UHGV virus genome: UHGV-1366603
Strand: one strand, 5' to 3'
Length of the DNA: 64,000 nt
Source of the DNA: a virus
Part shown: piece after piece, positions 9,633-43,090 of the stretch
How positions within the stretch are numbered: the first letter of the stretch is position 1
How the letters are laid out: every line of letters starts with the position of its first letter
Position numbers and translations under genes: made by a program
Notes under the pieces: generated by a model
What the model saw: the letters and a program-made list of their open reading frames with translations, nothing else
Databases searched by the model: none
Told to the model about the DNA's origin: nothing

Positions 9633-10904
9633 ATGGCAAATTTCGCAAAAACTCGCGCCGCTCGTGAATCAATGGAAGCGGCCGATGAAGTAATCGACGG
9701 TATCAGCAACGTTGAACCGGCAGAAGAGAACCTGGACGTCCAGCTTGCGGACGTTGCATCTATCGACGGTCAGCTCGAACAGCTGGAAACCGACGGTGAA
9801 ACCCTGGCTGCCGATACCGAGCGTACTGAAGACGCTATCGAACAGGCGGAAGAAGCCGTTGCTAACGGTGAAGAAATGCCGGAAGAAGCGGTTGCCCTGC
9901 ATGAAGTGGCACAGGAATCCATCGCACGTCGTTGGAACCTGGAGCGTACTAAACTGGCTCGCGAATCCTATCGCCGTGGCCGTGGCATGACTGCTGCTGC
10001 GCAGGAAGGCTGGAAAGAAACCCTGAAAGGTCTTTACGAGCGTTTCATTCAGTTCTGTAAAGAAGTAATTGCGAAGATCAAAGACCTGAAACTGAAATAT
10101 TTCAACGTCGGTAAGACCGCACAGAAACGTGCGAAGAAATATCAGGAAATGATCCGCAAGCTGGGCAAACAAGATAAAGACAACATTTCTGGCGGCTTTA
10201 TCACCAAACTGTCCATCGAAGGTAAATTCGATGCTGCTGGCTCTATTGCCATTGCTAAAGAAGTGACCGCAGGTAAAGCTAAAGGTGCTATCAGTGCACT
10301 GGAAAAACAAGCTGGTGAAGCTGTGACTGCTGTTACCAAAGGTGACGATGACGCATTCAAAGCGATGCGTGGTGATCAGCCGGTTGAACTGTTTGGTAAA
10401 GCAGCGTCTAAACTGCATTCTCTGCCGAACTTTGAAAACGGCGATGCGTCTAAACTGCTGGCTCTGCCGGGCAACGCTTACGTTCAGGCTGGTACTAAAG
10501 AACTGGCTGGCGGCCACAAGTTCACCGCAATTGCGTTCATGAGCACCGGTGACGCTTCTGACGATAAAGAAGTGGCTACTCCGTCTGTTTCCGAAATGGC
10601 TGGCGCGGCATCTGCTCTGGAAGCGATCGGTAAAGGCTTCGAAGCTGTACTGAAAGATTTCCGTGCTTACGATTCTGAAATCGTGAAACTGCAACAGGCT
10701 GCTGAAAAAGCGTCCAACGCGCTGAACAACGAAAAAGACGAAAGTAAGTGGGAAGGACTGCGTAATGCACGTCAGGCCGCTGATCAGTCTGTGAAGAACT
10801 ACCAGACCCTGAACCGTGCCGTTAGCTATGTTGCTAACACCGTTATTAGCGGTCTGAACGGTTACCTGGGTGCTGGTATCGGCGCGTACAAAAAGTCTAA
10901 ATAA
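9633..10904 (+). CDS. abundant acidic-N-terminus protein, paralog A (423 aa); candidate head internal/scaffold-like virion protein
   Basis: Starts MANFAKTRAARESMEA, same as downstream paralog; strongly host-optimised codons (ctg/cgt/ggt/aac); long antisense shadow ORF. Confidence 0.85.
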   Translation: MANFAKTRAARESMEAADEVIDGISNVEPAEENLDVQLADVASIDGQLEQLETDGETLAADTERTEDAIEQAEEAVANGEEMPEEAVALHEVAQESIARRWNLERTKLARESYRRGRGMTAAAQEGWKETLKGLYERFIQFCKEVIAKIKDLKLKYFNVGKTAQKRAKKYQEMIRKLGKQDKDNISGGFITKLSIEGKFDAAGSIAIAKEVTAGKAKGAISALEKQAGEAVTAVTKGDDDAFKAMRGDQPVELFGKAASKLHSLPNFENGDASKLLALPGNAYVQAGTKELAGGHKFTAIAFMSTGDASDDKEVATPSVSEMAGAASALEAIGKGFEAVLKDFRAYDSEIVKLQQAAEKASNALNNEKDESKWEGLRNARQAADQSVKNYQTLNRAVSYVANTVISGLNGYLGAGIGAYKKSK

Positions 10905-10943: not shown

Positions 10944-10962
10944 GGGGAACGACGTGTTCCCC
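10944..10962 (+). other. intergenic hairpin GGGGAAC-GACGTG-TTCCCC between paralogs (weak terminator/processing site)
   Basis: Stem-loop seen in sequence; no strong T-run. Confidence 0.3.
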
Positions 10963-10980
10963 TTAGAGGAAAAGCTTAAA

Positions 10981-12243
10981 ATGGCAAATTTCGCAAAAAC
11001 TCGCGCCGCTCGTGAATCGATGGAAGCTACTGCTACTGTAGTTCCAGACGGCATCGAACTGCCAGCAGAATCTGTTGAAGGTACTCTGGCCGATATCGAA
11101 CATGATACCAAACCGATCGAAGCCCTGGACGCTGACGCTGAACTGCTGGCCGAAGACGGCGACGAAACTGATGCTCAACTGGATGTCCTGGATGAAGCTC
11201 AGGCCGCTGCCGACGGTGAAGGTGCTGGTGAAGACGGCGAAGAGCCGATGGACGCTGAAGAAGATATGCCGGACGACGCAGCGACTGCGCTGGACGTTGC
11301 TCAGGAATCTATCCGTTCTCGTTGGAACTTCGAACACCGTTCTTCCGTTGCACACGAATCCTACGGTTCTCGTAACCGTCGCCAGGTTGCTCGTGAATCC
11401 CTGTGGGAAGACATTAAAGCATTCCTGAAACGTATCTGGGAATGGCTGAAAGAACAAGGCCGTAAGATCAAAGATCGTTGGCTGAAATTCTCCAACCAGG
11501 GTAAATCCATCCAGGCTCGTTCTAAGAAATACGACGATGCTATTCGTAAACTGGGCAAACAGAAGAAAGATGAAATCTCTGGTGGCTTCATCAAGTCTCT
11601 GTCTATCGACGGTAAATTCGTTGGCGACGATCTGTCGCGCCTGAAGAATATCCTGAACCACGTCTCCACCTACTACAGTGGTAACGTTCAGAGCTTCCTG
11701 AACAACGGTACGGATATGGTTGGTAACGTCGTTAAAGGCGATGGTGCTAAAGTTGAGAAACTGAAAGCAGACTTCGCTGCTCTGGCTAAAGAAGACGTTA
11801 GCAAGTTCAAACTTGGTAACATGGCTCTGAAGATGGAGTACGACGAAGAAGGCGGATTTAGCTCCAGCTATGTGGAAGCTGAAAACCGTGCTGAAACCAA
11901 CGTGAAAACTCCGTCTGTTAGCGAACTGGCTAAGACCAATGCCTTCTTCAACGAAGTGGGTAAACAGATCGAGAAGAACGTTCTGGAATATCGTAAGACT
12001 GAACAGGCTCGCGAGAAATTCAGCCAGCAGATTGAGAAGCTGCTGAAAGAAATCGACAGCGTGAAGATCGACGAAAAACCGCAACTGACCGAATCTGTAC
12101 GTACCGCACGTCGTTACATCAACAGCATTAACCAGGCAGTGTCTCTGGGCGAGAAAGTTATTTCCTCTACTCAGAAACATCTGGCTGGCGGTCTGAACGG
12201 CTATATCTCCGCAGGTATCGCTGCTTACGAAAAATCTAAATAA
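10981..12243 (+). CDS. abundant acidic-N-terminus protein, paralog B (420 aa)
   Basis: Start set at MANFAKTRAARESMEA (track ORF begins upstream at 10954); shared N- and C-terminal motifs with paralog A (…GLNGY…AGI.AY.KSK). Confidence 0.85.
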   Translation: MANFAKTRAARESMEATATVVPDGIELPAESVEGTLADIEHDTKPIEALDADAELLAEDGDETDAQLDVLDEAQAAADGEGAGEDGEEPMDAEEDMPDDAATALDVAQESIRSRWNFEHRSSVAHESYGSRNRRQVARESLWEDIKAFLKRIWEWLKEQGRKIKDRWLKFSNQGKSIQARSKKYDDAIRKLGKQKKDEISGGFIKSLSIDGKFVGDDLSRLKNILNHVSTYYSGNVQSFLNNGTDMVGNVVKGDGAKVEKLKADFAALAKEDVSKFKLGNMALKMEYDEEGGFSSSYVEAENRAETNVKTPSVSELAKTNAFFNEVGKQIEKNVLEYRKTEQAREKFSQQIEKLLKEIDSVKIDEKPQLTESVRTARRYINSINQAVSLGEKVISSTQKHLAGGLNGYISAGIAAYEKSK

Positions 12244-12260
12244 TCTCTGATTGTTTAGTA

Positions 12261-12308
12261 GGAGAACCACCCTGTAATGGGGTGGTTCTCCCTTTTCTTT
12301 TTTTTTTC
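12261..12308 (+). terminator. intrinsic terminator
   Basis: GGAGAACCACCC-TGTAAT-GGGGTGGTTCTCC hairpin followed by long T-run. Confidence 0.9.
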
Positions 12309-12322
12309 GCATTAAAAATAAT

Positions 12323-24474: not shown

Positions 24475-26760
24475 ATGAAAGATACCCGAATCTCTAATTT
24501 AGAGAAACTCGTAGAAGCCGGTACTAGTCTGGCCCAAAACGTCATCGGCAACAACACCGCCAGCGAAATGTGGAATACGATTGTTGCAGGCGAGTCCGTA
24601 CGCAGCAACGCAAAAGTGTTTGGCGCTCTGCGTGACGAAGCATCACAGCACTATGCCAACGCTTTTGGTGGCAAGAAAATGTCTCATGCTGCGACTGTCG
24701 CCTCCGCAATGATTCTGGGCGCAGCTAACCACGGTAAAGACCTGCAAGAACGTGTTGCCCAGGAATACGCTAAGCCGGAATTCCACACCAAGTATAACCT
24801 GGATATTGGTATCCCTGGTGCGCAAGGTGGTGACTGGGGTCGTGAGCGCATGGTTGTTGCTCAGGAATACTACAGCAACAAAGACTACGACAAAAACCTG
24901 GGCCTGACCTGGACCCTGAACGTACGTGCTCTGGAAACTCAGTCCAAGTTTGCTGAAACACTGTTCCCGACCATTACCGTCGACACCAACGATGTTGGTA
25001 TTACCGTACGTACTAAAGTGACTACCGTTTCTCGCGGTATCATGAACGCGCTGCTGAGCAAAGACGTCGTTGAAGATCATCGTCGTCCGCTGCACAACGC
25101 ACTGACTGACCACACCGTTCTCCAGGACGAAGCGATCAACATCGTTCCTTACGTAATGGAAACCGGTGAAAACCAGGAATACTTCGTAAGCGAAGAACTG
25201 GTTCCGAACGAAACCGTTCGCCTGGGTCGTGTACCTCCGTATCCGACTAACTACCTGAGCTTTGCAAACGACACGCTGAACCTGTTCCAGCTGTCTGCGC
25301 ATCCGGGTATCGTTCAGGAAGGTTACGAAGAAACTGATGAAATCGCACCGGGTTGTGCTCTGGGCAGCCTGCTGATTTCTGTACGTAAACCGGCCGAAGA
25401 AGCGAAAGCGGGTAAATTCATCAAACTGCACGTTCGTGACATGCAGTTCGCAACCTTCCAGCGTCCTGCTGAAGGTGACGGCCGTGAACTGGTTCTGCAA
25501 TTCCGTCGTACCGCGTTCTCTCTGAATGCGAAAACCACTGACTGGAAAGGCGACGCTATTCCGGCTCTGCAAGCACTGGGCCAGAACTCCTACACCCTGC
25601 GCTACGTTATCACCATCACCATGTCCCTGTTCACCAGCGGCCAGTTCGGTGGTAAAGTAGACATTTCCGGCCACAAACTGGAAATCGAAGGTCTGTACGA
25701 TGCAACTGGTAACAAAGTTGATACCAAGTCTGGTACCGGTAAAGTTATCCTGGATGGCCTGAAACTTGAACTGATGGGCTGGCGCTTCGATGGTACTCGT
25801 ACCAACGAAAACCGTCGTACCCAGGGTCTTCTGCTTGACCCAATTTGGGAACAGGAAAACTACAAACTGCAATACGGTTCTCCGATTCTGACCAAGTCTC
25901 CGGTTGGTGTTGAATACGACGACACTGAACGTCTGGACGACCTGATCTCTGCGGTGAACATCCGTAACGAACAGCTGGCTATTACTCAGACGCTGTCTTA
26001 CACCGAAGCAGTACGTAACGCAGCCGCTGCGATGATCACTCCGTGGGACAAACCGGCTATCCGTGGTCTGGGCCGTCACTGGGTTGCTCCGTGGTTCAAA
26101 GAGTCTGACTACAAAGTCGATGAAGTTGTTCAGTCTCTGGATACCAAAGAAGCGCTGATCAACGCTCGTCAGGGTCTGTTGCAGCGTATCGGTAGCCAGG
26201 TAACTCAGGCTATCCAGGATTCTCGTTTCATTCCTGCACTGCGCCTGCTGACCGCTGATCCGGACATTCTGCCGAAAGTTATTATCGCAACTGACGAACC
26301 GACTGCATCTATGCTGCTGCTGGTTCAGGGCGACCAACGTCTGCTGGGCGACCGTTATGAATACGAAGTCGTTACCACCAACGATGACCGCTGGCGCATC
26401 TACAACGCAGCTGACGATTCCTGGACTCGTCGTCTGCAATGGTTCCTGAAAGTTCCGACTGCGGACGATGGTTCCTACTGCGTACTGAACTGGGGTAACC
26501 ACTTCTGGTCTCCGATCATGGTTACCAACATCAACATCCAGCGTAACGGTTCTACTTCTAAAGAACTGGCTGTACAGCCGCGTAACGCGCATATCTGCCA
26601 CTGCCCGATCACTGGTCTGATTTGGGTTAAAGGCATCACCAAACTGGTTGAAGAAAAACTGGCTTACAACGTTTCTGTAGAACAGAACGGCCAGAAACAA
26701 ACCGACGGTGGTGTAGCAGGTAATGTTGCTGGCGACGGTAAAGACAAAGCTGGTAAATAA
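24475..26760 (+). CDS. major virion structural protein (761 aa); candidate major capsid protein (alternatively tail sheath)
   Basis: Extreme host-optimised codon usage, strong terminator after it, 685-aa antisense shadow ORF; size matches phiKZ-type major capsid proteins (from memory). Confidence 0.85.
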   Translation: MKDTRISNLEKLVEAGTSLAQNVIGNNTASEMWNTIVAGESVRSNAKVFGALRDEASQHYANAFGGKKMSHAATVASAMILGAANHGKDLQERVAQEYAKPEFHTKYNLDIGIPGAQGGDWGRERMVVAQEYYSNKDYDKNLGLTWTLNVRALETQSKFAETLFPTITVDTNDVGITVRTKVTTVSRGIMNALLSKDVVEDHRRPLHNALTDHTVLQDEAINIVPYVMETGENQEYFVSEELVPNETVRLGRVPPYPTNYLSFANDTLNLFQLSAHPGIVQEGYEETDEIAPGCALGSLLISVRKPAEEAKAGKFIKLHVRDMQFATFQRPAEGDGRELVLQFRRTAFSLNAKTTDWKGDAIPALQALGQNSYTLRYVITITMSLFTSGQFGGKVDISGHKLEIEGLYDATGNKVDTKSGTGKVILDGLKLELMGWRFDGTRTNENRRTQGLLLDPIWEQENYKLQYGSPILTKSPVGVEYDDTERLDDLISAVNIRNEQLAITQTLSYTEAVRNAAAAMITPWDKPAIRGLGRHWVAPWFKESDYKVDEVVQSLDTKEALINARQGLLQRIGSQVTQAIQDSRFIPALRLLTADPDILPKVIIATDEPTASMLLLVQGDQRLLGDRYEYEVVTTNDDRWRIYNAADDSWTRRLQWFLKVPTADDGSYCVLNWGNHFWSPIMVTNINIQRNGSTSKELAVQPRNAHICHCPITGLIWVKGITKLVEEKLAYNVSVEQNGQKQTDGGVAGNVAGDGKDKAGK

Positions 26761-32138: not shown

Positions 32139-34856
32139 TTAGAGAGTTTCATCGGTGTTTTCGTCTGTACCGGTATCCGTCTCGTCCGTGCCTTCAGTTG
32201 AAACGTCTTCTTCCGTTGTCGTATCGGTTTCTGTCGTTTCATCATCGGTCATGTCCAAGTCTTCATCACCGCCCAGATCGTCACCACCTAAGTCCTCATC
32301 GCCTCCTAAGCCACCGTCATCTTCAGTGCCGCCACCAAAGTCGCTACCACCGCCGAAGTTATTGGCGTCTTCAGGATTCAGATCGGCTGCTTTTGCTAAC
32401 GTCTGAACTTTACCTGTCGCACGTTTTGCTAACTGAATCAGCGTCTTCGATGCCGCTGCAATTTCATCAGAAATCATCTTGACGTTTTCACCACGTTTAT
32501 CTTCATCGTAGATCAAATCAAACAGATCGGTTTCGATGCCCTGATTACGTAGCCAGTTGCGCGCGTAGAAGGTCTTAACCATCGTCTTGAGGTCATCAGG
32601 TGACATTTCAATACCTTCGTTCTGAAGCATATTAGCAATGTCATCCGTGACCACCAGATCTGCAAGTTTCTCGATAAATTCATAGCGTTTATCGAAGAGA
32701 TCAGCTTGAGATGCTGTTGCAGAAGTATCGGGCGGCGGCAAGGTGACCTTCATACCGTTGATAAACTTCGCCATATACTCTGACGTTTGTTTTGTCATCT
32801 CTTCGCTAGTTACATTCGGATTCTGCTCACGGATATACTCAACGATAATACGGATGAGTTCTGCTTGCAGTTTCGGTGAAGCTTGCAGACTGTTTGTAAC
32901 GTAGCGCGTAAGCGGGGTTGAGAGAATTTCCTGTTTCTTCACAATCTGTTGAGTAACCAACAGCGATTTAGAATAAATCTGAGAAGCAAACTCCAGGTTC
33001 TCCGGGGTAAGTACAAGGTCAGGATCAACACACGCGATGTGACATGTACGGCGTAACAGGTTCTCGTCGATTTGTTGATCAGGAACTTTATACTCCGGCG
33101 TGGTATCAGACACAGACACTTTGTGGCTGGCGTAGTAATCGTTACCCGTTACGTTAAAGGCAATCCCCGCATTAGCCCCCATTGACCAGGCGTCGTTGAT
33201 ATCGCCCCACATCGGCAGACGTCGATTGTAGGAGTTAAGGATATCTGATTTAACTTGGTCAACGGTTTTCTGACCGTTTGCATCATCTGGTGACAGCTCA
33301 ATGTCATACTGCATGTGACGTGCCGAGTTCAGTACAGATGAGTTCATCGTTGCGAACAGCAGCGCCATCCTGACAGTAGAGATAATAAAGGAGCGTTCAG
33401 TAATAGAAACCCCGATACCGTCCTCGTTAAAGTCCGTTGCAAAATAGCATAGGTTATTAACCGGAATGTAAACCACCTGAGTATGACGTTTTGCGAGATG
33501 ACGCGCCAACAGAATACGACCGAATGTTTCGGTAATATTCATGCTGATTTCTGCGCCACCTAGTGCCTGACTTAATGCGCGAGCAAATTCGTTTTCAGCG
33601 ATTTCACCACAACGTGCACTTAAACGGTTGGCGATTTCCGGGGTAATACGAGAAGTGTTCCCTAAGCCCAGATTAGAACGGTTAATGATGCTGTCCGTCA
33701 TCCCGTCGTTATTCAGGTAGTTCATAAAGTTCGCATCGCCGTACAGCGAGGAGCGAGCATTGATGAAGTTACCCATGTCATCTACGATGGTCAGATAACC
33801 AATAGGGTTACGAACGTCATCGCCAATTACCAGTGGCAGCGTTGACTCTGCGGGCAGTAAACGTTCGATGTATTCGATTTTGTTATTCTCATCCATTGAG
33901 ATAATAGGAATATCACCGTACGTTTGTGTTTTCGGTGTTGACTTATACGCCTCGTTTAAATCGCCCAAGTTAATGAACCCTTTTTCAGCAGCGTCACGCT
34001 GACGGTCATCGAAAGATTGGTTAGGGTCGAACGGACTGCCACCGTTTGGTGTAGACGGCTTTTCATATGCGGCTTGCTCTAATTGCCCGTACAATCCCGT
34101 ACGTGCGTTCTCATGCGCGATACGACGATACAAATCCGGCAGCATGGTAATGCGTGGGTTATCGGTAATCGTGATTTCCATCTGGAATTTATCCGAGAAC
34201 ATCGAATCATGCTTACCGAAATCGATTTTCAACGTTTGAGGACCAGTAACGGCTCCGTGTAAACGGTTGAGAATTGATTCTACACCAACTCGCTGCCCTT
34301 CTTTCGGCGCATTAATAGGCCCGAGAATACCAAGCTGTTGTTCGAAGAACGCCGTTTGAGAACGACGAACAGATTCAGTAGCGACCTTTGTATTCAGGCC
34401 GAATAATTGGTCGAAGCCGGTATCCGAGATTATCATCACTGGACTTGCGCCTTTGGTTTTTAACGCATCGTAAATCCACTGATATAATTTCTTAGGTAGC
34501 TGACGAATGTTATCGTGATAATCACGGGTCGGTGTCAGTAGCGCGTTACGCAGATCAATGGGGATGTCCGCGATGTTGTCGTAAATCAACGTCGTGTTGA
34601 TTAAGTCTTTTGTTGATAGCAGGCTCGAAGTTGCAATAGTAACGATTGTTTCGAGTTCAGGTAACGCATCAAAGATACGTTCCGCATTTTTGATAGTACG
34701 AATACGTGAACTCGCAATTGCCGTGAGTTCTTGACGTGTTGGCGTAGAACCACCCTCGCTACGCGTACCGCGTTGTTGCTGAGGTGCTGGGCCCGTAGTT
34801 TTACGAAGAATTGCAGCTACGGCGGGGTCGCCCGTTAATTTACTAATATCGTCCAT
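32139..34856 (-). CDS. large protein (905 aa) with Gly/Asp/Glu/Thr-rich acidic C-terminal tail; candidate portal or other head protein
   Basis: Long minus ORF; C-terminus GGGSDFGGGTEDDGGLGGDEDLGGDDLGGDEDL…TDETDTGTDENTDETL; GGAG RBS. Confidence 0.8.
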   Translation of the reverse strand: MDDISKLTGDPAVAAILRKTTGPAPQQQRGTRSEGGSTPTRQELTAIASSRIRTIKNAERIFDALPELETIVTIATSSLLSTKDLINTTLIYDNIADIPIDLRNALLTPTRDYHDNIRQLPKKLYQWIYDALKTKGASPVMIISDTGFDQLFGLNTKVATESVRRSQTAFFEQQLGILGPINAPKEGQRVGVESILNRLHGAVTGPQTLKIDFGKHDSMFSDKFQMEITITDNPRITMLPDLYRRIAHENARTGLYGQLEQAAYEKPSTPNGGSPFDPNQSFDDRQRDAAEKGFINLGDLNEAYKSTPKTQTYGDIPIISMDENNKIEYIERLLPAESTLPLVIGDDVRNPIGYLTIVDDMGNFINARSSLYGDANFMNYLNNDGMTDSIINRSNLGLGNTSRITPEIANRLSARCGEIAENEFARALSQALGGAEISMNITETFGRILLARHLAKRHTQVVYIPVNNLCYFATDFNEDGIGVSITERSFIISTVRMALLFATMNSSVLNSARHMQYDIELSPDDANGQKTVDQVKSDILNSYNRRLPMWGDINDAWSMGANAGIAFNVTGNDYYASHKVSVSDTTPEYKVPDQQIDENLLRRTCHIACVDPDLVLTPENLEFASQIYSKSLLVTQQIVKKQEILSTPLTRYVTNSLQASPKLQAELIRIIVEYIREQNPNVTSEEMTKQTSEYMAKFINGMKVTLPPPDTSATASQADLFDKRYEFIEKLADLVVTDDIANMLQNEGIEMSPDDLKTMVKTFYARNWLRNQGIETDLFDLIYDEDKRGENVKMISDEIAAASKTLIQLAKRATGKVQTLAKAADLNPEDANNFGGGSDFGGGTEDDGGLGGDEDLGGDDLGGDEDLDMTDDETTETDTTTEEDVSTEGTDETDTGTDENTDETL

Positions 34857-34867
34857 TGGGGTCTCCG

Positions 34868-37051
34868 ATGCAGAGATTTAACATATTTCGTGAACAGAAC
34901 ATCGCGTTGGCGAAATCACTGATTATTAAATCAGAATCAATCGCACAACAGATGAATCTGGCAATAACCGAGAACGGCGGTTTCGTTTCCGATAACCGAA
35001 GTACGTGGCGATACTACCTGCATTTAGCAGGACAACGTCACGAATGGGATAAGCCCATTTACATAACGTCGCTCGACACGCAAGAGCAGATAGAATTAAC
35101 GACAGCCAACCTGTCCCGTCATAAAAAGACCTCAAACGTATTTCGTTCGAACGGCGAGTACATTGAGGAGCTGATCAGAACGTATCCTGACTACGCGATT
35201 TATATCCGAGGTGTGTTTAATCCGGTGGATATAAACTACGCCATCCGTGTGGCCGACTGCTCTATCCTCTATTACGACAGTTCATTAGTGGAGTCGCAAG
35301 AGACGTCGCTGATGTCGAGATTGGAAGACAGAATAAGGGCAGCTCATGTTCGCTATATGTCAGAAGGGTGGAAAGTTCACAACGATGCGTTCGTGTTAGC
35401 GTTCTACTGTATTCTGTATCCGCAGCTACCCGGCATTATTGGTTACATCCGTTCTTCTTTACAGCATACCACGGAAACGCATTCGTTTTACGTGACAGAG
35501 TTCTTAGCATCACACCAAGAACTTCACGAGTTTATGCCTTATCTGACCCAGAAACAGAAATTCATTCTGTATCGGAATATTCGTTACTGGGAGCGTAACT
35601 CAGGGAAAGAGGAGATTTTCGACTGGCAGATTGATGCGCTACTGACAGGTTGGGGGATGCCTGCGGTTGGGTATAATGTTGCGCAACAGATACACGAACC
35701 GAAGGATGATGACGATTCCACGTTAACACCGTTACCGATTGGTTATCAGCAATCGCTTAACTATACGGAAAAGGATTCTGGTCGAGACCTTGACATTGTA
35801 ACGACGACGGACATTATCCAGAAGGAAGTCGCGTTAGCGTACAATAACCCGGCGTACGAACCGGAGTATCAGGAAGACTTAGATACCCGTTTAAGTTTAA
35901 CGCAATACCCTAACCTGAAAACCAAACTCATTGAAGTTACAGCAGTCGACCCAGAGGCGATTGAGCGCTTCGAGTATCTGCATAACCTCTTTAACGAATG
36001 GGTACATCTCGTCGCGAAAGGGAAATACAACATTTACCACGAGATTCTTAACCCAACAAACGGGGATACCTTAAAGCTTAGCTCAAAAGAGTTATTGGCG
36101 CTGTTCTTGTACGCGGCGTATAAAGGGTATTCTGACGTTGCGTTAGAAGAGATTCCTGTGTTCAACGTATTCGGGGTGTTAATCAAACGCTGGGTTCCAT
36201 TCGACGAAATGGAACAACATTTAATCCCGAGCTGGGAAAACCGTTTCGATGCGTTGATTAACTATTATACCGATACGCACACAGAAGTCGTCGGAACGAT
36301 TCTCAGTGCTGACGAACTCTACGACACGGTTAATGAAATCATTACCCAGAAACGTCGTCGTTGGCGTTATAGCCAAAACCGTCGGAAGATTCCTGACCGC
36401 GCTGCGGGCTTGATGCTGTTTAACTACCATTATCGTGATTATCGTTGCGATTTAAAACTGAACTACCGTAACTACGATGAGTTCTTTAAAACGTTTGGGT
36501 TAGATTATACGTTGGTTTCTGCGGAGACGTGGCAAGACATTGCTATTGACGCGTTTAACACCGCAACTAACCTCGAAACCCGCGCAACGATTTCACAGTC
36601 TGAGATTCAGCGTGCGATGGTACGACTGATGACGAAGCTGTCATCCTACACCGTACATTTTGCTGCACGAATGGGGTCAGATTCTTACGACGTTATGGAC
36701 CCGCTCTGTCCTATCTTAGGGGATATCCCTATGAGTGGGGAGGGGTCGGTTACCATTATTGAACCCCTCTTAGGCGTACAGCAAGTTACGCGTCACCAGT
36801 ATATGTCCACCGACACTGTGTTACCGGCAGCGCCTGTTATTAAAGAACTGTCGATGCCGCAGCACATCAAACTCAGGATGAACATTTACATGGGCATCCG
36901 AGTGAAAGTAACACAGCAGGTTGTGGTGGATATTAACGAGCCGACTACCGGGGTTGTTAAAGTGAAATCTTCGCTTGACGATTGGACGTTAAACGAACAG
37001 GTGAAAATTAACGATCTGGACGGCTTCACGCTTGACCAGCTACCTAAGTGA
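34868..37051 (+). CDS. hypothetical large protein (727 aa)
   Basis: Start set at ATG 34868 (track uses TTG 34856); diverges 11 bp from 905-aa gene start. Confidence 0.8.
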   Translation: MQRFNIFREQNIALAKSLIIKSESIAQQMNLAITENGGFVSDNRSTWRYYLHLAGQRHEWDKPIYITSLDTQEQIELTTANLSRHKKTSNVFRSNGEYIEELIRTYPDYAIYIRGVFNPVDINYAIRVADCSILYYDSSLVESQETSLMSRLEDRIRAAHVRYMSEGWKVHNDAFVLAFYCILYPQLPGIIGYIRSSLQHTTETHSFYVTEFLASHQELHEFMPYLTQKQKFILYRNIRYWERNSGKEEIFDWQIDALLTGWGMPAVGYNVAQQIHEPKDDDDSTLTPLPIGYQQSLNYTEKDSGRDLDIVTTTDIIQKEVALAYNNPAYEPEYQEDLDTRLSLTQYPNLKTKLIEVTAVDPEAIERFEYLHNLFNEWVHLVAKGKYNIYHEILNPTNGDTLKLSSKELLALFLYAAYKGYSDVALEEIPVFNVFGVLIKRWVPFDEMEQHLIPSWENRFDALINYYTDTHTEVVGTILSADELYDTVNEIITQKRRRWRYSQNRRKIPDRAAGLMLFNYHYRDYRCDLKLNYRNYDEFFKTFGLDYTLVSAETWQDIAIDAFNTATNLETRATISQSEIQRAMVRLMTKLSSYTVHFAARMGSDSYDVMDPLCPILGDIPMSGEGSVTIIEPLLGVQQVTRHQYMSTDTVLPAAPVIKELSMPQHIKLRMNIYMGIRVKVTQQVVVDINEPTTGVVKVKSSLDDWTLNEQVKINDLDGFTLDQLPK

Positions 37052-37058
37052 GAAAACC

Positions 37059-37586
37059 ATGGCATATCGCGTCGACTTAACGAAAACTCCGAAACAAATT
37101 CTGGTAGATCGTATTAACTACGTTTTCGGGGTATCCTATACCACTGATAACATCGATTTTAACGATAAAGGTGTGCAGCCACTGACGAAAGACGAAGCCC
37201 GTCGTTACGGACTGGAATCGAAAGTGGCGGCCGACTTTAAAAACGGTGTTACAGGGAACCAGGAATTCATCTTAACCCGTGTTGACCTGGCAACGTTCTT
37301 AGCTGACGAACCGGTTACAGTACCGAAAGGCGAAGTAACCAGCAGCCAAGAACTGGCAGACTATATCGTTGCCCAGACCGGTATTGATTTGACCAAAGAT
37401 GACATTATGATCGAGCCTATCAGTGAGGAACTCGATTCTTATGATGTTCGCTTAGTCCCGAATCACTTATCTTTTAAAGGAACGATTCCGGTCGTATTTA
37501 CTGACCCCACACCACGCACGTTGGCGTCTCTCGTGACGAAACTTGCGCTGGACGGGTTCCGCCCTGGAGAATTAATCAATGTCTAA
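37059..37586 (+). CDS. hypothetical protein (175 aa)
   Basis: Start set at first ATG (track TTG at 37032 overlaps upstream gene). Confidence 0.65.
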   Translation: MAYRVDLTKTPKQILVDRINYVFGVSYTTDNIDFNDKGVQPLTKDEARRYGLESKVAADFKNGVTGNQEFILTRVDLATFLADEPVTVPKGEVTSSQELADYIVAQTGIDLTKDDIMIEPISEELDSYDVRLVPNHLSFKGTIPVVFTDPTPRTLASLVTKLALDGFRPGELINV

Positions 37587-38466
37587 TGTCAAAGTTTACG
37601 ACGGTAAACTCTCGACGGTAACACTTAATGCGATGCGTCTGGCTACCGCATTAATTACCGGTGCCGATGTGCAATACCCACAGAAGTCCACACTGAATGA
37701 GTTTTATAAGCTCATGCAAACCCCAGTGCCGGACGGTAAAGCACGTCCCCATTTGCAGTACATGGCGATTGGTAACCGTGGCCACATGGTCGACACATCA
37801 GACGTTGTTGCTGATGTTGTTCCTGTAGCTAAAGAACCTATCGCGTCCGGGATGTTTTCACGCGTTCCGTTTGTCCTGCGTACTAAAGACAACGATTTGT
37901 CTGATGAACAGCGTAAGAACTACGCTTTCCGTACTCTGGAAACCATCAACAAACGTGAGTATTGGGCGTACTACTTAAAACGCATTGACATGCGTGCAGT
38001 AAAAACTACCGACTACGACATTAAGCGTGAGAACGGTGTTGAAACTGTAGAAGACTTTGTCTATACGGATACTGAACTGAACCCGGTACCGAAAGTGTTA
38101 CCGGACTACGATTACGACGATGACGGTACCGTTGCAATTCCTGACGGCCGTTATGTGGAATCAGGCGCAGACCTGGTTATTCCGTGGACGGACTTTGACG
38201 TTCAGGAGTACATGAACGTGACCAGCATTATGCGCGGTAGCCCTCGTAGTTCGATTATCTCTGAACTGGCACTGTGCTCTGGTTTAGACCAAGTAACGTC
38301 TGGTGACTCTGCCACAGGTTCGAAGTTCAGCTACACTGAAGCTATCGGTGTACAAGCCCTGTATTACATTTCGATGTTTACTAACCTGGCGCAGACGAAC
38401 GATAAACTGTCACTGACAATCCGTATCGGTCAACCTGCACCGTTCTTCTTAGGGACAGCGAATTAA
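37579..38466 (+). CDS. hypothetical protein (295 aa)
   Basis: GGAGA RBS, 8-nt overlap with upstream gene. Confidence 0.8.
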   Translation: MSNVKVYDGKLSTVTLNAMRLATALITGADVQYPQKSTLNEFYKLMQTPVPDGKARPHLQYMAIGNRGHMVDTSDVVADVVPVAKEPIASGMFSRVPFVLRTKDNDLSDEQRKNYAFRTLETINKREYWAYYLKRIDMRAVKTTDYDIKRENGVETVEDFVYTDTELNPVPKVLPDYDYDDDGTVAIPDGRYVESGADLVIPWTDFDVQEYMNVTSIMRGSPRSSIISELALCSGLDQVTSGDSATGSKFSYTEAIGVQALYYISMFTNLAQTNDKLSLTIRIGQPAPFFLGTAN

Positions 38467-39110
38467 TGTTGATTCCTGAGCCGAGACTTCCCGATAAAAT
38501 GGTCAGGATCGCGGCGATAGACCCCGGTACGAGCCATCTCGGGATGGCGGTGCTGGATTGGGAATATGGCAGCGACCAAGCCGAAGTGGTGTGGGCTGAT
38601 ACCATGCACGTATTAGACCCAACACATCCAAGTGCGTTTGCAGAGTGTGTCGGTAAACGCGACGATCGCTTAGTAAAACTCGAAGCGTGCTACCGTGAGT
38701 TTCTTCGGATTGCGCGTCCGACGTTTGTTGCAACAGAAACGCCGTTTATGCGGCGGGCAAAACTCTCCGCGTATGAGTCTGGCGTAGAGTTACAGCTGAT
38801 GTTAAGACGGGCGTTATGGGACGTGTTTCCAGAGAAAGTCTTACACGGGTTCAATCCGATTATTGTAAAATCATTCGTTGGTGTGGAAGCGAAAGGAACG
38901 GACAAAACAGATATGTTTCGTGCCGTAACGAAGTTGTATCGCGACCACGCGTTGTTTGACATTACAACGTTGGATGAGCACAGTATCGATGCCGTGGCGG
39001 TGGGGAATATCTTTGTCAGGGTAAACCTGTTAAACTTGAATAGTCTCCTACCGCCAAAACAAAAGTCTGCTAAGACAGCAAAACGGCGGAGAAGACGTCG
39101 GAGGAAATAG
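38466..39110 (+). CDS. putative RuvC-like Holliday-junction resolvase/endonuclease with poly-Arg C-terminal tail
   Basis: N-terminal VRIAAIDPGTSHLGMAVLD (RuvC IDPG motif), internal ETPF and DEHSIDAVAVG acidic motifs, C-terminal KRRRRRRRK. Confidence 0.55.
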   Translation: MLIPEPRLPDKMVRIAAIDPGTSHLGMAVLDWEYGSDQAEVVWADTMHVLDPTHPSAFAECVGKRDDRLVKLEACYREFLRIARPTFVATETPFMRRAKLSAYESGVELQLMLRRALWDVFPEKVLHGFNPIIVKSFVGVEAKGTDKTDMFRAVTKLYRDHALFDITTLDEHSIDAVAVGNIFVRVNLLNLNSLLPPKQKSAKTAKRRRRRRRK

Positions 39111-39112
39111 CG

Positions 39113-39691
39113 ATGTCGCAACCAACACAAGACGTGTCAGCCGCAATTCTTGACATTCTTATCCAAGCAGGAAACAGAAAGTTAAGTAAAGAGCAGTCCG
39201 AAGAACTGTCTAAGATTCTCAAAGACAACTTCGGTGACGACGTCTCTGTAGACGTAACGCGGTCGGGTACAAAGATTCTGTCGGAGCTACGCCCAACGCT
39301 TCTTGAGAACATTGGAAAGATGGCGGAAAACTTTCAGCAGCAAGCCACAAACGCTGTAGAGAGTTTAGGTGACGAAGTAAGCAAAGAAACGATGTTGACA
39401 CTGTGGCCAAAACTTGCCGGTGCACAGAAGTTCATTATTGTTCTGCTTGCACTCGCCACTGTGGTCGTGACAGGCTTCTTAGCGTACGACACGCATCAGA
39501 ACTTTCCAAAAGACAGTATGGAAGTGTTATTTGTATCCTTACTTCCGCTGTTCGGATTGGTAGTATTTGCAACGTGGCCAATTAAAACGTTGGCTTACAA
39601 GTCGTTGGAGATTGCTACCAAAGTTGTCGAGAAGAAACTTGAGAAATCAGGTCAGGTCGTCGCGAAGACGGAAACAAAGACAGCGAAATAA
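39113..39691 (+). CDS. membrane protein (192 aa), two predicted TM helices
   Basis: Hydrophobic segments FIIVLLALATVVVTGFLAY and LFVSLLPLFGLVVFATW. Confidence 0.75.
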   Translation: MSQPTQDVSAAILDILIQAGNRKLSKEQSEELSKILKDNFGDDVSVDVTRSGTKILSELRPTLLENIGKMAENFQQQATNAVESLGDEVSKETMLTLWPKLAGAQKFIIVLLALATVVVTGFLAYDTHQNFPKDSMEVLFVSLLPLFGLVVFATWPIKTLAYKSLEIATKVVEKKLEKSGQVVAKTETKTAK

Positions 39692-39693
39692 AA

Positions 39694-39735
39694 CCAACCT
39701 CTACCTTCGGGTAGAGGTTTTCTTCTTTTTATTTT
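39694..39735 (+). terminator. intrinsic terminator (UUCG tetraloop)
   Basis: AACCTCTACC-TTCG-GGTAGAGGTT then T-rich tail. Confidence 0.85.
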
Positions 39736-42506: not shown

Positions 42507-42535
42507 CATTAACGACGGTCTTTATGGAGGTGACC

Positions 42536-43090
42536 ATGAAAGAATATAAAATCGCGATCATCGGGTCTCGAGAAACACCGGAAGACGTTATGCAGGAAAT
42601 GTTGGAAACGTTACGGGAAGGGTTTCGAATCTTACGAAAGAAAGGCTACACGATTACCACCCGTTCTGGAGGATGTTATAAAGGCCCAGACCAACTTCAG
42701 TTCATGTTAGCACGCACCGAGGACGTTAAGAGCGTTTGTTACCTGCCGGATGAAAAGAAAATGTGGCTAGGGAAAATACACCCTAAAGTAGAGTTCCGTT
42801 ATATCCCACAAGACGTGCAGTACCGAGCAGTTGTTGCTTCACTCCACCCAAACCCAGATAAGCTCTCACCGATTGCCTGGGCGTTACACGGTCGTAATCT
42901 GAATATCATCTCAGGTGACCGTTTAGACGAACCGGTAGACGCAGTGTATTATTTCAGCGACCACGACAAACACGGAAACGCAAAGGGTGGTACTGCGATG
43001 GGTGTAAAATACGCGAAGTCAGTCGACGTTCCTTGTTACTACCATACCGCCGATCGAGATAAGTGGTTGGAAAGTCTTCGTTTATTATGA
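42536..43090 (+). CDS. SLOG/DprA-like Rossmann-fold protein (184 aa)
   Basis: KIAIIGSRE…TITTRSGGCYKGPDQ resembles DprA/Smf and SLOG-family glycine-rich motifs; GGAGGTG RBS. Confidence 0.5.
   Translation: MKEYKIAIIGSRETPEDVMQEMLETLREGFRILRKKGYTITTRSGGCYKGPDQLQFMLARTEDVKSVCYLPDEKKMWLGKIHPKVEFRYIPQDVQYRAVVASLHPNPDKLSPIAWALHGRNLNIISGDRLDEPVDAVYYFSDHDKHGNAKGGTAMGVKYAKSVDVPCYYHTADRDKWLESLRLL

Follow-up and report, generated by a model that had tools for sequence, protein, structure and literature searches.

A predicted RuvC-like resolvase with a basic C-terminal tail in the structural gene cluster of an SPN3US-like jumbo phage

We analyzed a 64,000-nucleotide stretch of the virus genome UHGV-1366603 (hereafter the window), and in particular the gene at 38466..39110, which encodes a protein of 214 amino acids (aa). 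Profile searches and a predicted structure show that this protein belongs to the RuvC family, with an RNase H-like fold and an intact active site, and it is very probably an active nuclease of that family. Taking the sequence, the structural model and analogy with other viruses together, we consider it quite likely that the protein is a core junction resolvase that would debranch replication and recombination DNA for packaging, with a disordered tail acting as a non-specific tether to DNA. Taken separately, debranching for packaging is, by analogy, the probable biological role, and for the tail the chances of its being a DNA tether are about even. The kind of protein is already known, as the RuvC-like resolvase of the Chimalliviridae core genes, and the basic tail appears to be undescribed in the literature that we searched.

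Fold and family

In the PHROGs database the 214-aa protein falls into phrog_159, "RuvC-like Holliday junction resolvase", with an E-value (E) of 9e-39. A profile made from 41 homologs, which reach down to 39% identity, matched the Thermus thermophilus RuvC (E 1.5e-4) and the Deinococcus radiodurans RuvC (E 5e-4) in the PDB, and 7 of these 41 close homologs match the Pfam RuvC family PF02075, the best of them at E 1.8e-7.

An AlphaFold2 model of the monomer, built on the 41-homolog alignment, has a mean predicted local distance difference test score (pLDDT) of 87.8 and a predicted template modeling score (pTM) of 0.85. Its topology is bbb-a-b-a-b-a, the RNase H-like order of strands and helices, with strands at residues 12-20, 24-33 and 40-48, a helix at 57-83, a strand at 87-91, a helix at 100-120, a strand at 126-129, and then further helices. 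When the model was compared to the PDB with Foldseek, ranks 1-12 were all bacterial RuvC (E 2e-10 to 4e-8, template modeling (TM) score 0.69-0.81 normalized on the target), well ahead of RuvX/YqgF, of poxvirus, chloroplast and lactococcal-phage resolvases, and of terminase and IscB nuclease domains. The RuvX/YqgF matches fall well short of these (E 5e-5, TM 0.43-0.44 on the query), and IscB/IsrB and terminase nuclease domains matched at E about 3e-4 to 1e-3. In the BFVD collection of predicted viral structures, the best matches are proteins of jumbo phages and other phages that are named Holliday junction resolvase or RuvC. An earlier reading of this DNA from its letters and open reading frames (ORFs), which we call the sequence-only reading, had proposed a resolvase fold of the RuvC/YqgF type and had named structure prediction as a way to check it. 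The prediction gave an RNase H-like fold that is specifically RuvC-like, with YqgF the weaker match.

We considered RuvX/YqgF, a terminase nuclease, and an IscB/TnpB-type RuvC domain as identities for the protein and rejected all three, because their structural matches are much weaker than those of RuvC.

The fold is the same as that of the bacterial RuvC proteins of T. thermophilus (4ep4, 4ld0, 6s16), D. radiodurans (7w8d, 7xhj), Pseudomonas aeruginosa (6lw3) and Escherichia coli (1hjr), with only about 20% sequence identity. Four catalytic positions match, in the histidine version found in Thermus and Deinococcus, and so do the aromatic residue after the catalytic Glu and a conserved Lys. 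Unlike the bacterial enzymes, the window protein has 11 additional residues at its N-terminus, an insertion at about residues 49-56, a C-terminal extension, and an acidic core with an isoelectric point (pI) of 5.9. Bacterial RuvC works with RuvA and RuvB as partners, while the RuvC-like enzymes of jumbo phages occur without them (Iyer et al. 2021, PMC7824862).

Active site

Residue conservation was read from the alignment of the 41 homologs, in which D19, E91, F94, K135, D170, E171, H172 and D175 are all invariant. The sequence-only reading had pointed to an N-terminal segment, VRIAAIDPGTSHLGMAVLD (residues 13-31), and to two acidic motifs, ETPF (residues 91-94) and DEHSIDAVAVG (residues 170-180), as RuvC-like. 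These peptides, and the C-terminus that it quoted, are all present in the translation of 38466..39110, and the two acidic motifs turned out to hold the invariant catalytic positions E91 and H172/D175, with D19 invariant as well. In T. thermophilus RuvC the counterpart of E91 is the first E of VEEQF, and E91 also aligns with the catalytic Glu of "IEDQ" (HMMER). H172 and D175 align with the H and D of "nnHAADALA" in D. radiodurans RuvC (HMMER). The DEHSID motif is invariant in the clade of the window protein and nearly so, as LDEH[SA]xDA, among the 150 best family representatives. We predict from these alignments that D19, E91, H172 and D175 form a metal-binding tetrad, in the histidine-containing version known from Thermus and Deinococcus RuvC. 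The reference catalytic residues we take to be D7, E66, D138 and D141 in E. coli RuvC and D7, E70, H143 and D146 in Thermus RuvC.

F94 lies three positions past E91, in the place of the RuvC wedge phenylalanine, so that "ETPF" pairs with "EEQF" of T. thermophilus RuvC; the wedge aromatic of E. coli RuvC is F69.

An active nuclease of this fold could have a main job other than junction resolution, such as the degradation of host DNA, an attack on the DNA of a co-infecting phage, or the processing of stalled forks and flaps. The RuvC fold does serve many nucleases with other substrates, among them the IscB/IsrB and terminase domains that Foldseek matched, and the phage enzymes have no RuvA or RuvB partner (Iyer et al. 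2021, PMC7824862). However, the best matches in structure and in sequence are true junction resolvases (bacterial RuvC, followed by the poxvirus, chloroplast MOC1 and lactococcal phage enzymes), the wedge aromatic F94 is invariant, and the protein is a single domain of the size of a resolvase. The gene is also universal in its family and has a fixed place in a structural operon that is presumably late, and this suits housekeeping maturation better than a role in conflict. We therefore regard another main job as unlikely.

The basic C-terminal tail

The last helix of the model ends near residue 188 and is followed by the hydrophobic segment LLNLNSLLPP and then by a K/R-rich end. The C-terminus of the protein, KTAKRRRRRRRK, ends in KRRRRRRRK. 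The pLDDT is 83 for residues 191-200 and falls to 52-57 for residues 201-214, and we predict on the basis of the latter values that the basic part is disordered. The seven Arg codons are mixed (CGG CGG AGA AGA CGT CGG AGG, four different codons), so the Arg run is not a repeat of nucleotides but a feature at the level of the protein. Of the window's ORFs that reach 60 aa, only the resolvase has K or R at 10 of its terminal 12 positions, with at most 7 of 12 elsewhere, and none of the others has a comparable basic end, including the ORFs that PHROGs labels "polymerase" and DnaB-like helicase.

In the 41 homologs the tail is 15-26 residues long, consists of K and R to 52-71%, and has a net charge of +9 to +15. 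Pairwise identity is 35% in the tail and 58% in the core. The tail is thus conserved in charge and not in sequence.

The Arg run might also be a by-product of constraint at the DNA level, imposed by the downstream gene's purine-rich ribosome-binding site or by slippage, and have no function in the protein. In its favor, GGAGG at 39100-39104 lies within the last Arg codons, 8 nucleotides from the downstream ATG. A ribosome-binding site cannot, however, account for a basic region of 15-26 residues, which goes far beyond what such a site needs; the codons are a mixture of Arg and Lys codons, and a charge of +9 to +15 has been held across the homologs in spite of drift in sequence and length. We find this explanation highly improbable.

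In the phiKZ-type proteins and most other family members the chain ends after the last helix, whereas in the window protein and its clade, the SPN3US-like branch, the chain is longer by about 24 residues, made up of the linker and the K/R tail, with a charge of about +12. PhiPA3 gp159 stops directly after the last helix, and so does the majority of the 150 best family representatives, and the tail is absent in 128 of the 157 family sequences that we compared, including the phiKZ and PhiPA3 orthologs. On a neighbor-joining tree of the core domain, which is rough and only indicative, the basic tail is present in all 26 terminals of the window clade and recurs in about five scattered places elsewhere. 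This suggests, from the sequences compared, one old gain of the tail that has been maintained, plus independent gains in other branches.

The core of the window protein (38466..39035) has a net charge of -4 and a pI of 5.9, and with the tail the pI of the whole protein is 9.6. Tail-bearing proteins have a median core charge of -5, compared with -2 for those without a tail (Mann-Whitney p = 5e-4, uncorrected for relatedness). Across the jumbo-phage RuvC-like family the catalytic core is acidic to neutral, which is unusual for an enzyme that cuts DNA.

Instead of holding DNA, the K/R tail, with or without LLNLNSLLPP, could be a signal for targeting or retention, either for import into the phage nucleus in the manner of a nuclear localization signal (NLS) or for docking to the acidic chimallin shell, the portal or the terminase. 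The phage belongs to a nucleus-forming family and its resolvase must reach DNA within the shell; the tail keeps its character throughout the clade and was apparently gained repeatedly; a conserved hydrophobic linker stands in front of the basic part; and the shell has been described as negatively charged (PMC13282480). Against this, reviews of the experiments describe nuclear import through surface patches of folded cargo, with no terminal signals (PMC13282480; PMC12908238). The phiKZ and PhiPA3 orthologs, and about 80% of the family, do without the tail, and the "polymerase" and DnaB-like helicase ORFs, whose products are expected in the nucleus, lack one, like every other ORF of the window. 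For want of a second ORF here with a basic end of this sort, we rejected a tail that would target proteins to the nucleus in general. We consider a targeting or retention signal to be unlikely, and the more specific idea that the linker and the poly-K/R segment form one linear module for localization or coupling, which would recruit the resolvase to the phage nucleus or to a packaging vertex docked at the shell, to be very doubtful. If it were true, this would be the first terminal NLS-like or docking peptide in a system where import is thought to need only recognition of folded surfaces, and the repeated gain of the tail in separate branches would be convergent evolution of a localization signal.

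Gene neighborhood

The upstream ORF (37579..38466) has its TAA stop codon at 38464-38466, and the ATG of the resolvase gene is at 38466-38468. The TAATG overlap that the sequence-only reading had noted is therefore present; the same overlap is annotated for this gene pair in SPN3US and Asesino, and it suggests that translation of the resolvase gene is coupled to that of the upstream virion-protein gene. The N-terminal MLIPEPRxPD is kept among the homologs, which supports the start at 38466. Coordinates of this and other features are given in Table 1.

Table 1. Features of the resolvase gene and its surroundings, in window positions.
Feature	Position	Strand	Remarks
Coding sequence of the RuvC-like Holliday junction resolvase	38466..39110	+	214 aa, 24.4 kDa, ATG to TAG
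Orthologs of the 38466..39110 product			SPN3US gp85 (numbering inferred), Asesino gp101, PhiPA3 gp159, phiKZ gp140; core gene cg40
TAATG stop/start overlap with upstream virion-protein gene	38464..38468	+	Read from the sequence
N-terminal extension MLIPEPRLPDK	38466..38498	+	Residues 1-11; precedes strand beta-1; conserved; modeled with high confidence; not in bacterial RuvC
D19 codon	38520..38522	+	Predicted first catalytic carboxylate; aligns with D7 of T. thermophilus RuvC (IDPG motif)
ETPF motif	38736..38747	+	E91, predicted second catalytic carboxylate; F94, invariant aromatic
K135 codon	38868..38870	+	Invariant; aligns with Lys of the "QVKQ" segment of bacterial RuvC
DEHSID motif	38973..38990	+	H172 and D175, predicted third and fourth catalytic positions
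Hydrophobic linker LLNLNSLLPP	39027..39056	+	Residues 188-197; after the last helix; conserved; specific to the tail-bearing clade
Basic C-terminal tail KQKSAKTAKRRRRRRRK	39057..39107	+	Residues 198-214; predicted disordered; extension 191-214 has net charge +12
Upstream partner gene	37579..38466	+	Homolog of virion protein SPN3US gp84/phiKZ gp139; DUF7208; cg39; synteny conserved
GGAGG, Shine-Dalgarno-like	39100..39104	+	Inside the last Arg codons; 8 nucleotides before the downstream ATG at 39113
Downstream gene	39113..39691	+	192 aa; phrog_8722; two hydrophobic stretches; last gene before the terminator-like hairpin
Terminator-like hairpin	39696..39719	both	10-bp stem, T-rich tails; between the resolvase gene cluster and the next genes

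The genes upstream of the resolvase are homologs of the SPN3US virion proteins gp81 (the portal) to gp84. In the SPN3US virion proteome, gp82 (84.4 kDa), gp83 (20 kDa) and gp84 (32.9 kDa) match window ORFs of 731, 184 and 295 aa in order and in size. The sequence-only reading had placed the gene within a block of large structural-like genes, which is right for the 5' side; on the 3' side the genes are small and non-structural. All of gp81 to gp84 are among the 86 proteins of the SPN3US virion, where even such low-copy proteins as the portal and the protease were detected, while gp85, the resolvase ortholog, is not among the 86. Because of this absence, the resolvase is to be seen, as far as gene order and orthology tell, as a non-structural enzyme that lies inside a structural gene cluster and is translationally coupled to it.

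A part in the virion would be another way to explain the tail, either because poly-arginine neutralizes or condenses DNA in the head, or because the nuclease is ejected into the host. The gene does come straight after a row of four virion-protein genes, with one of which it appears to be translationally coupled, and basic tails are typical of DNA-associated core proteins. We rejected a virion or DNA-condensing role on the SPN3US proteome, in which gp81, 82, 83 and 84 are found, low-copy proteins such as the portal and the protease having been within reach, and gp85 is not. The invariance of the catalytic residues, as expected for an enzyme, and the lack of a tail in the phiKZ-type orthologs also count against it, and we take it to be extremely improbable.

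The hairpin at 39696..39719, which scores as a strong terminator-like element on both strands, follows the downstream gene, and this suggests a single transcription unit from about 34856 to 39691, of which the hairpin is the probable 3' end. A scan for sigma-70 promoters gave only background-level hits and was not used. The starts of the portal homolog (32139..34856, minus strand) and of the gp82 homolog, which is on the plus strand, adjoin each other. With practically nothing between the two genes, divergent promoters, if there are any, would lie inside coding sequence. The listed TTG start of the gp82 homolog at 34856 is probably too early, and an ATG five codons in (34856..34870) is likelier. 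The product of the downstream gene at 39113..39691 has no sequence similarity to its positional counterpart in PhiPA3, gp160 ("Rz-like spanin"). A search of the 64-kb window for tRNAs found none.

The ORF at 42524..43090 (188 aa) lies 3.4 kb past the resolvase and shares 58% identity with the SPN3US "DprA-like DNA recombination-mediator protein". It has no Pfam match at E<=0.01. It may be another gene connected with recombination, or else the annotation is perhaps a weak one.

Several long ORFs in the window are antisense to other ORFs. One of 146 aa (38690..39130) overlaps the 3' half of the resolvase gene; it is a mechanical ORF, whose "RRLLRR" mirrors the Arg codons. Three others, of 685, 449 and 341 aa (24643..26700, 10963..12312 and 9669..10694, all minus strand), oppose the major head protein gene, the ORF at 10954..12243, and the ORF at 9633..10904 (an internal head protein gene), respectively, and are probably an effect of codon composition and not genes.

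Relatives among nucleus-forming jumbo phages

Among cultured phages, a DNA search with a 3.5-kb query found only Erwinia phage Asesino (72.8% identity over 60% of the query). The gene order of the window is collinear with those of Asesino and Salmonella phage SPN3US. By PHROGs and Pfam, the window has phiKZ-type genes for a major head protein, phiKZ_IP internal head proteins and a DnaB-like helicase, as well as the ORF labeled "polymerase", and it encodes a 905-aa homolog of the SPN3US portal gp81. Asesino has been shown by experiment to be nucleus-forming and belongs to the Chimalliviridae (PMC11724907). Given the phiKZ-type genes, the collinearity with Asesino and SPN3US, and the nucleus formed by Asesino, we conclude that the window is part of an SPN3US-like jumbo phage of the Chimalliviridae that is predicted to form a nucleus.

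The resolvase is 82% identical to its SPN3US ortholog. With tblastn we found homologs in 182 phage records, and, among the matches listed and in the tally of organisms, essentially all of these are jumbo phages of the phiKZ, SPN3US or EL kind, with hosts that include Erwinia, Pseudomonas, Vibrio, Salmonella, Serratia, Klebsiella, Ralstonia and others. An exhaustive profile search returned 1151 cluster representatives at E<=1e-3 and 717 at E<=1e-10. PhiPA3 gp159 (L003:3992-4555) has 35% identity to the window protein (E 5e-25), and its record describes it as similar to phiKZ gp140, 201phi2-1 gp225 and EL gp108. The upstream gene in the window likewise has 35% identity (E 3e-46) to PhiPA3 gp158, annotated as similar to phiKZ gp139. 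Since the pair in the window matches gp158-gp159 of PhiPA3, we consider the gene pair to be syntenic across the family.

In the supplement of the core-genome study of Prichard et al. 2023, phiKZ gp140 is listed as Chimalliviridae core gene cg40, "hypothetical", beside cg39, which is gp139; the main text of that paper has no mention of the cg40 protein. The orthologs of cg40 (phiKZ gp140, PhiPA3 gp159, 201phi2-1 gp225, EL gp108 and SPN3US gp85) occupy the same position after a gp139-type virion gene and have the same D, E and DEHxxD residues as the window protein. Many records, among them those of SPN3US and Asesino, still label the ortholog hypothetical.

A RuvC-like resolvase that lacks a RuvB-like ATPase partner occurs in nearly all group 1 jumbo phages, and endonuclease VII-like and RuvC-like resolvases have a nearly complementary distribution among jumbo phages (Iyer et al. 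2021, PMC7824862). The same study states that RusA displaces RuvC in the phiKZ-like Pseudomonas phages. Contrary to this statement, PhiPA3 gp159 is a homolog with its D, E and DEHxxD residues intact, and by this sequence evidence the phiKZ-like Pseudomonas phages seem to keep a RuvC-like gene.

The exact 214-aa protein occurs in 1464 blocks of a public assembly collection, on contigs of 212-228 kb, and in an NCBI assembly of Salmonella Agona a 54-kb contig carries a 99%-identical copy. Judged by these matches, the phage is very widespread in sequence data, and it has no close cultured relative. Five NCBI "hypothetical proteins" from the Salmonella phages SPFM1, 7, 8, 9 and 20 (P0056-P0060 in our set) resemble permuted, scrambled pieces of the resolvase. 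In P0057, 9 separate stretches match the family profile and internal motifs sit at the termini. The scrambling in these five is probably due to artefacts of annotation or assembly.

Proposed function

We propose that the resolvase would act as a homodimer like that of RuvC, without RuvAB, and that, to judge from the shared gene cluster, it would be produced late, alongside the structural genes. It would cut the four-way and otherwise branched DNA that arises in recombination-dependent replication, leaving unbranched concatemers that can be packaged. This debranching would take place before or during packaging and, in a nucleus-forming phage, inside the chimallin shell. The 24-residue extension, made up of the LLNLNSLLPP linker and the disordered K/R tail, would be a non-specific electrostatic tether to DNA for an acidic core, and by lifting the pI from 5.9 to 9.6 it should raise the affinity for DNA or the residence time on it. 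The sequence-only reading had offered a packaging-associated resolvase, or a nuclease with a nucleic-acid-binding tail. Both descriptions would suit this gene, as they agree with its place among its neighbors, with an ortholog that is missing from the SPN3US virion, and with a tail whose charge is conserved.

Stand-alone viral resolvases of the RuvC fold that work without RuvAB are known from Lactococcus phage bIL67 (4ktw) and, as the A22 type, from poxviruses (fowlpox 6p7b, canarypox 5e6f). Their structural match to the window protein is weaker than that of bacterial RuvC (E 6e-5 to 7e-4, 8-12% identity). The poxvirus A22 resolvase is needed to resolve concatemer junctions before packaging. 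We know of no poly-basic tail in the bIL67 RuvC or in the poxvirus resolvases. In phages T4 and T7, endonuclease VII (gp49) and endonuclease I (gp3), respectively, debranch replicating and recombining DNA for packaging. These two are functional analogues only, with unrelated folds and no homology to the window protein.

Some points weigh against this proposal. A Pfam search with the 214-aa protein alone at E<=10 gave no RuvC match, only the unrelated DUF7943 at E 0.24, and in sequence the protein resembles cellular RuvC only weakly. What carries the assignment is the homolog profile, the structural model and the set of conserved residues. Because most family members are without a tail, the tail is not essential for catalysis. 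The charge-compensation effect between core and tail is small, and its statistic is uncorrected for phylogeny. The last Arg codons double as the Shine-Dalgarno sequence of the downstream gene, and constraint on the DNA may have shaped part of the composition of the tail. The number gp85 in SPN3US was derived from the order of the genes and the masses of the proteins, and a protein's failure to appear in a proteome is negative evidence. In the literature that we searched there was no biochemical or genetic study of any member of this jumbo-phage protein family, and the papers on a gp140 concerned the numbering of other phages.

Implications

At the level of routine annotation, a "hypothetical protein" of a widespread, uncultured SPN3US-like jumbo phage becomes the core RuvC-type resolvase of its family. 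In a phage nucleus bounded by protein, branched replication DNA must be cleared before the capsids docked at the shell are filled, and the resolvase is the obvious candidate for this step. SPN3US offers a working amber-mutant system. The tail is a natural experiment, being present in a whole clade, absent from the phiKZ-type proteins, and apparently gained repeatedly, and it could show how an acidic RuvC core gains affinity for DNA or a particular localization.

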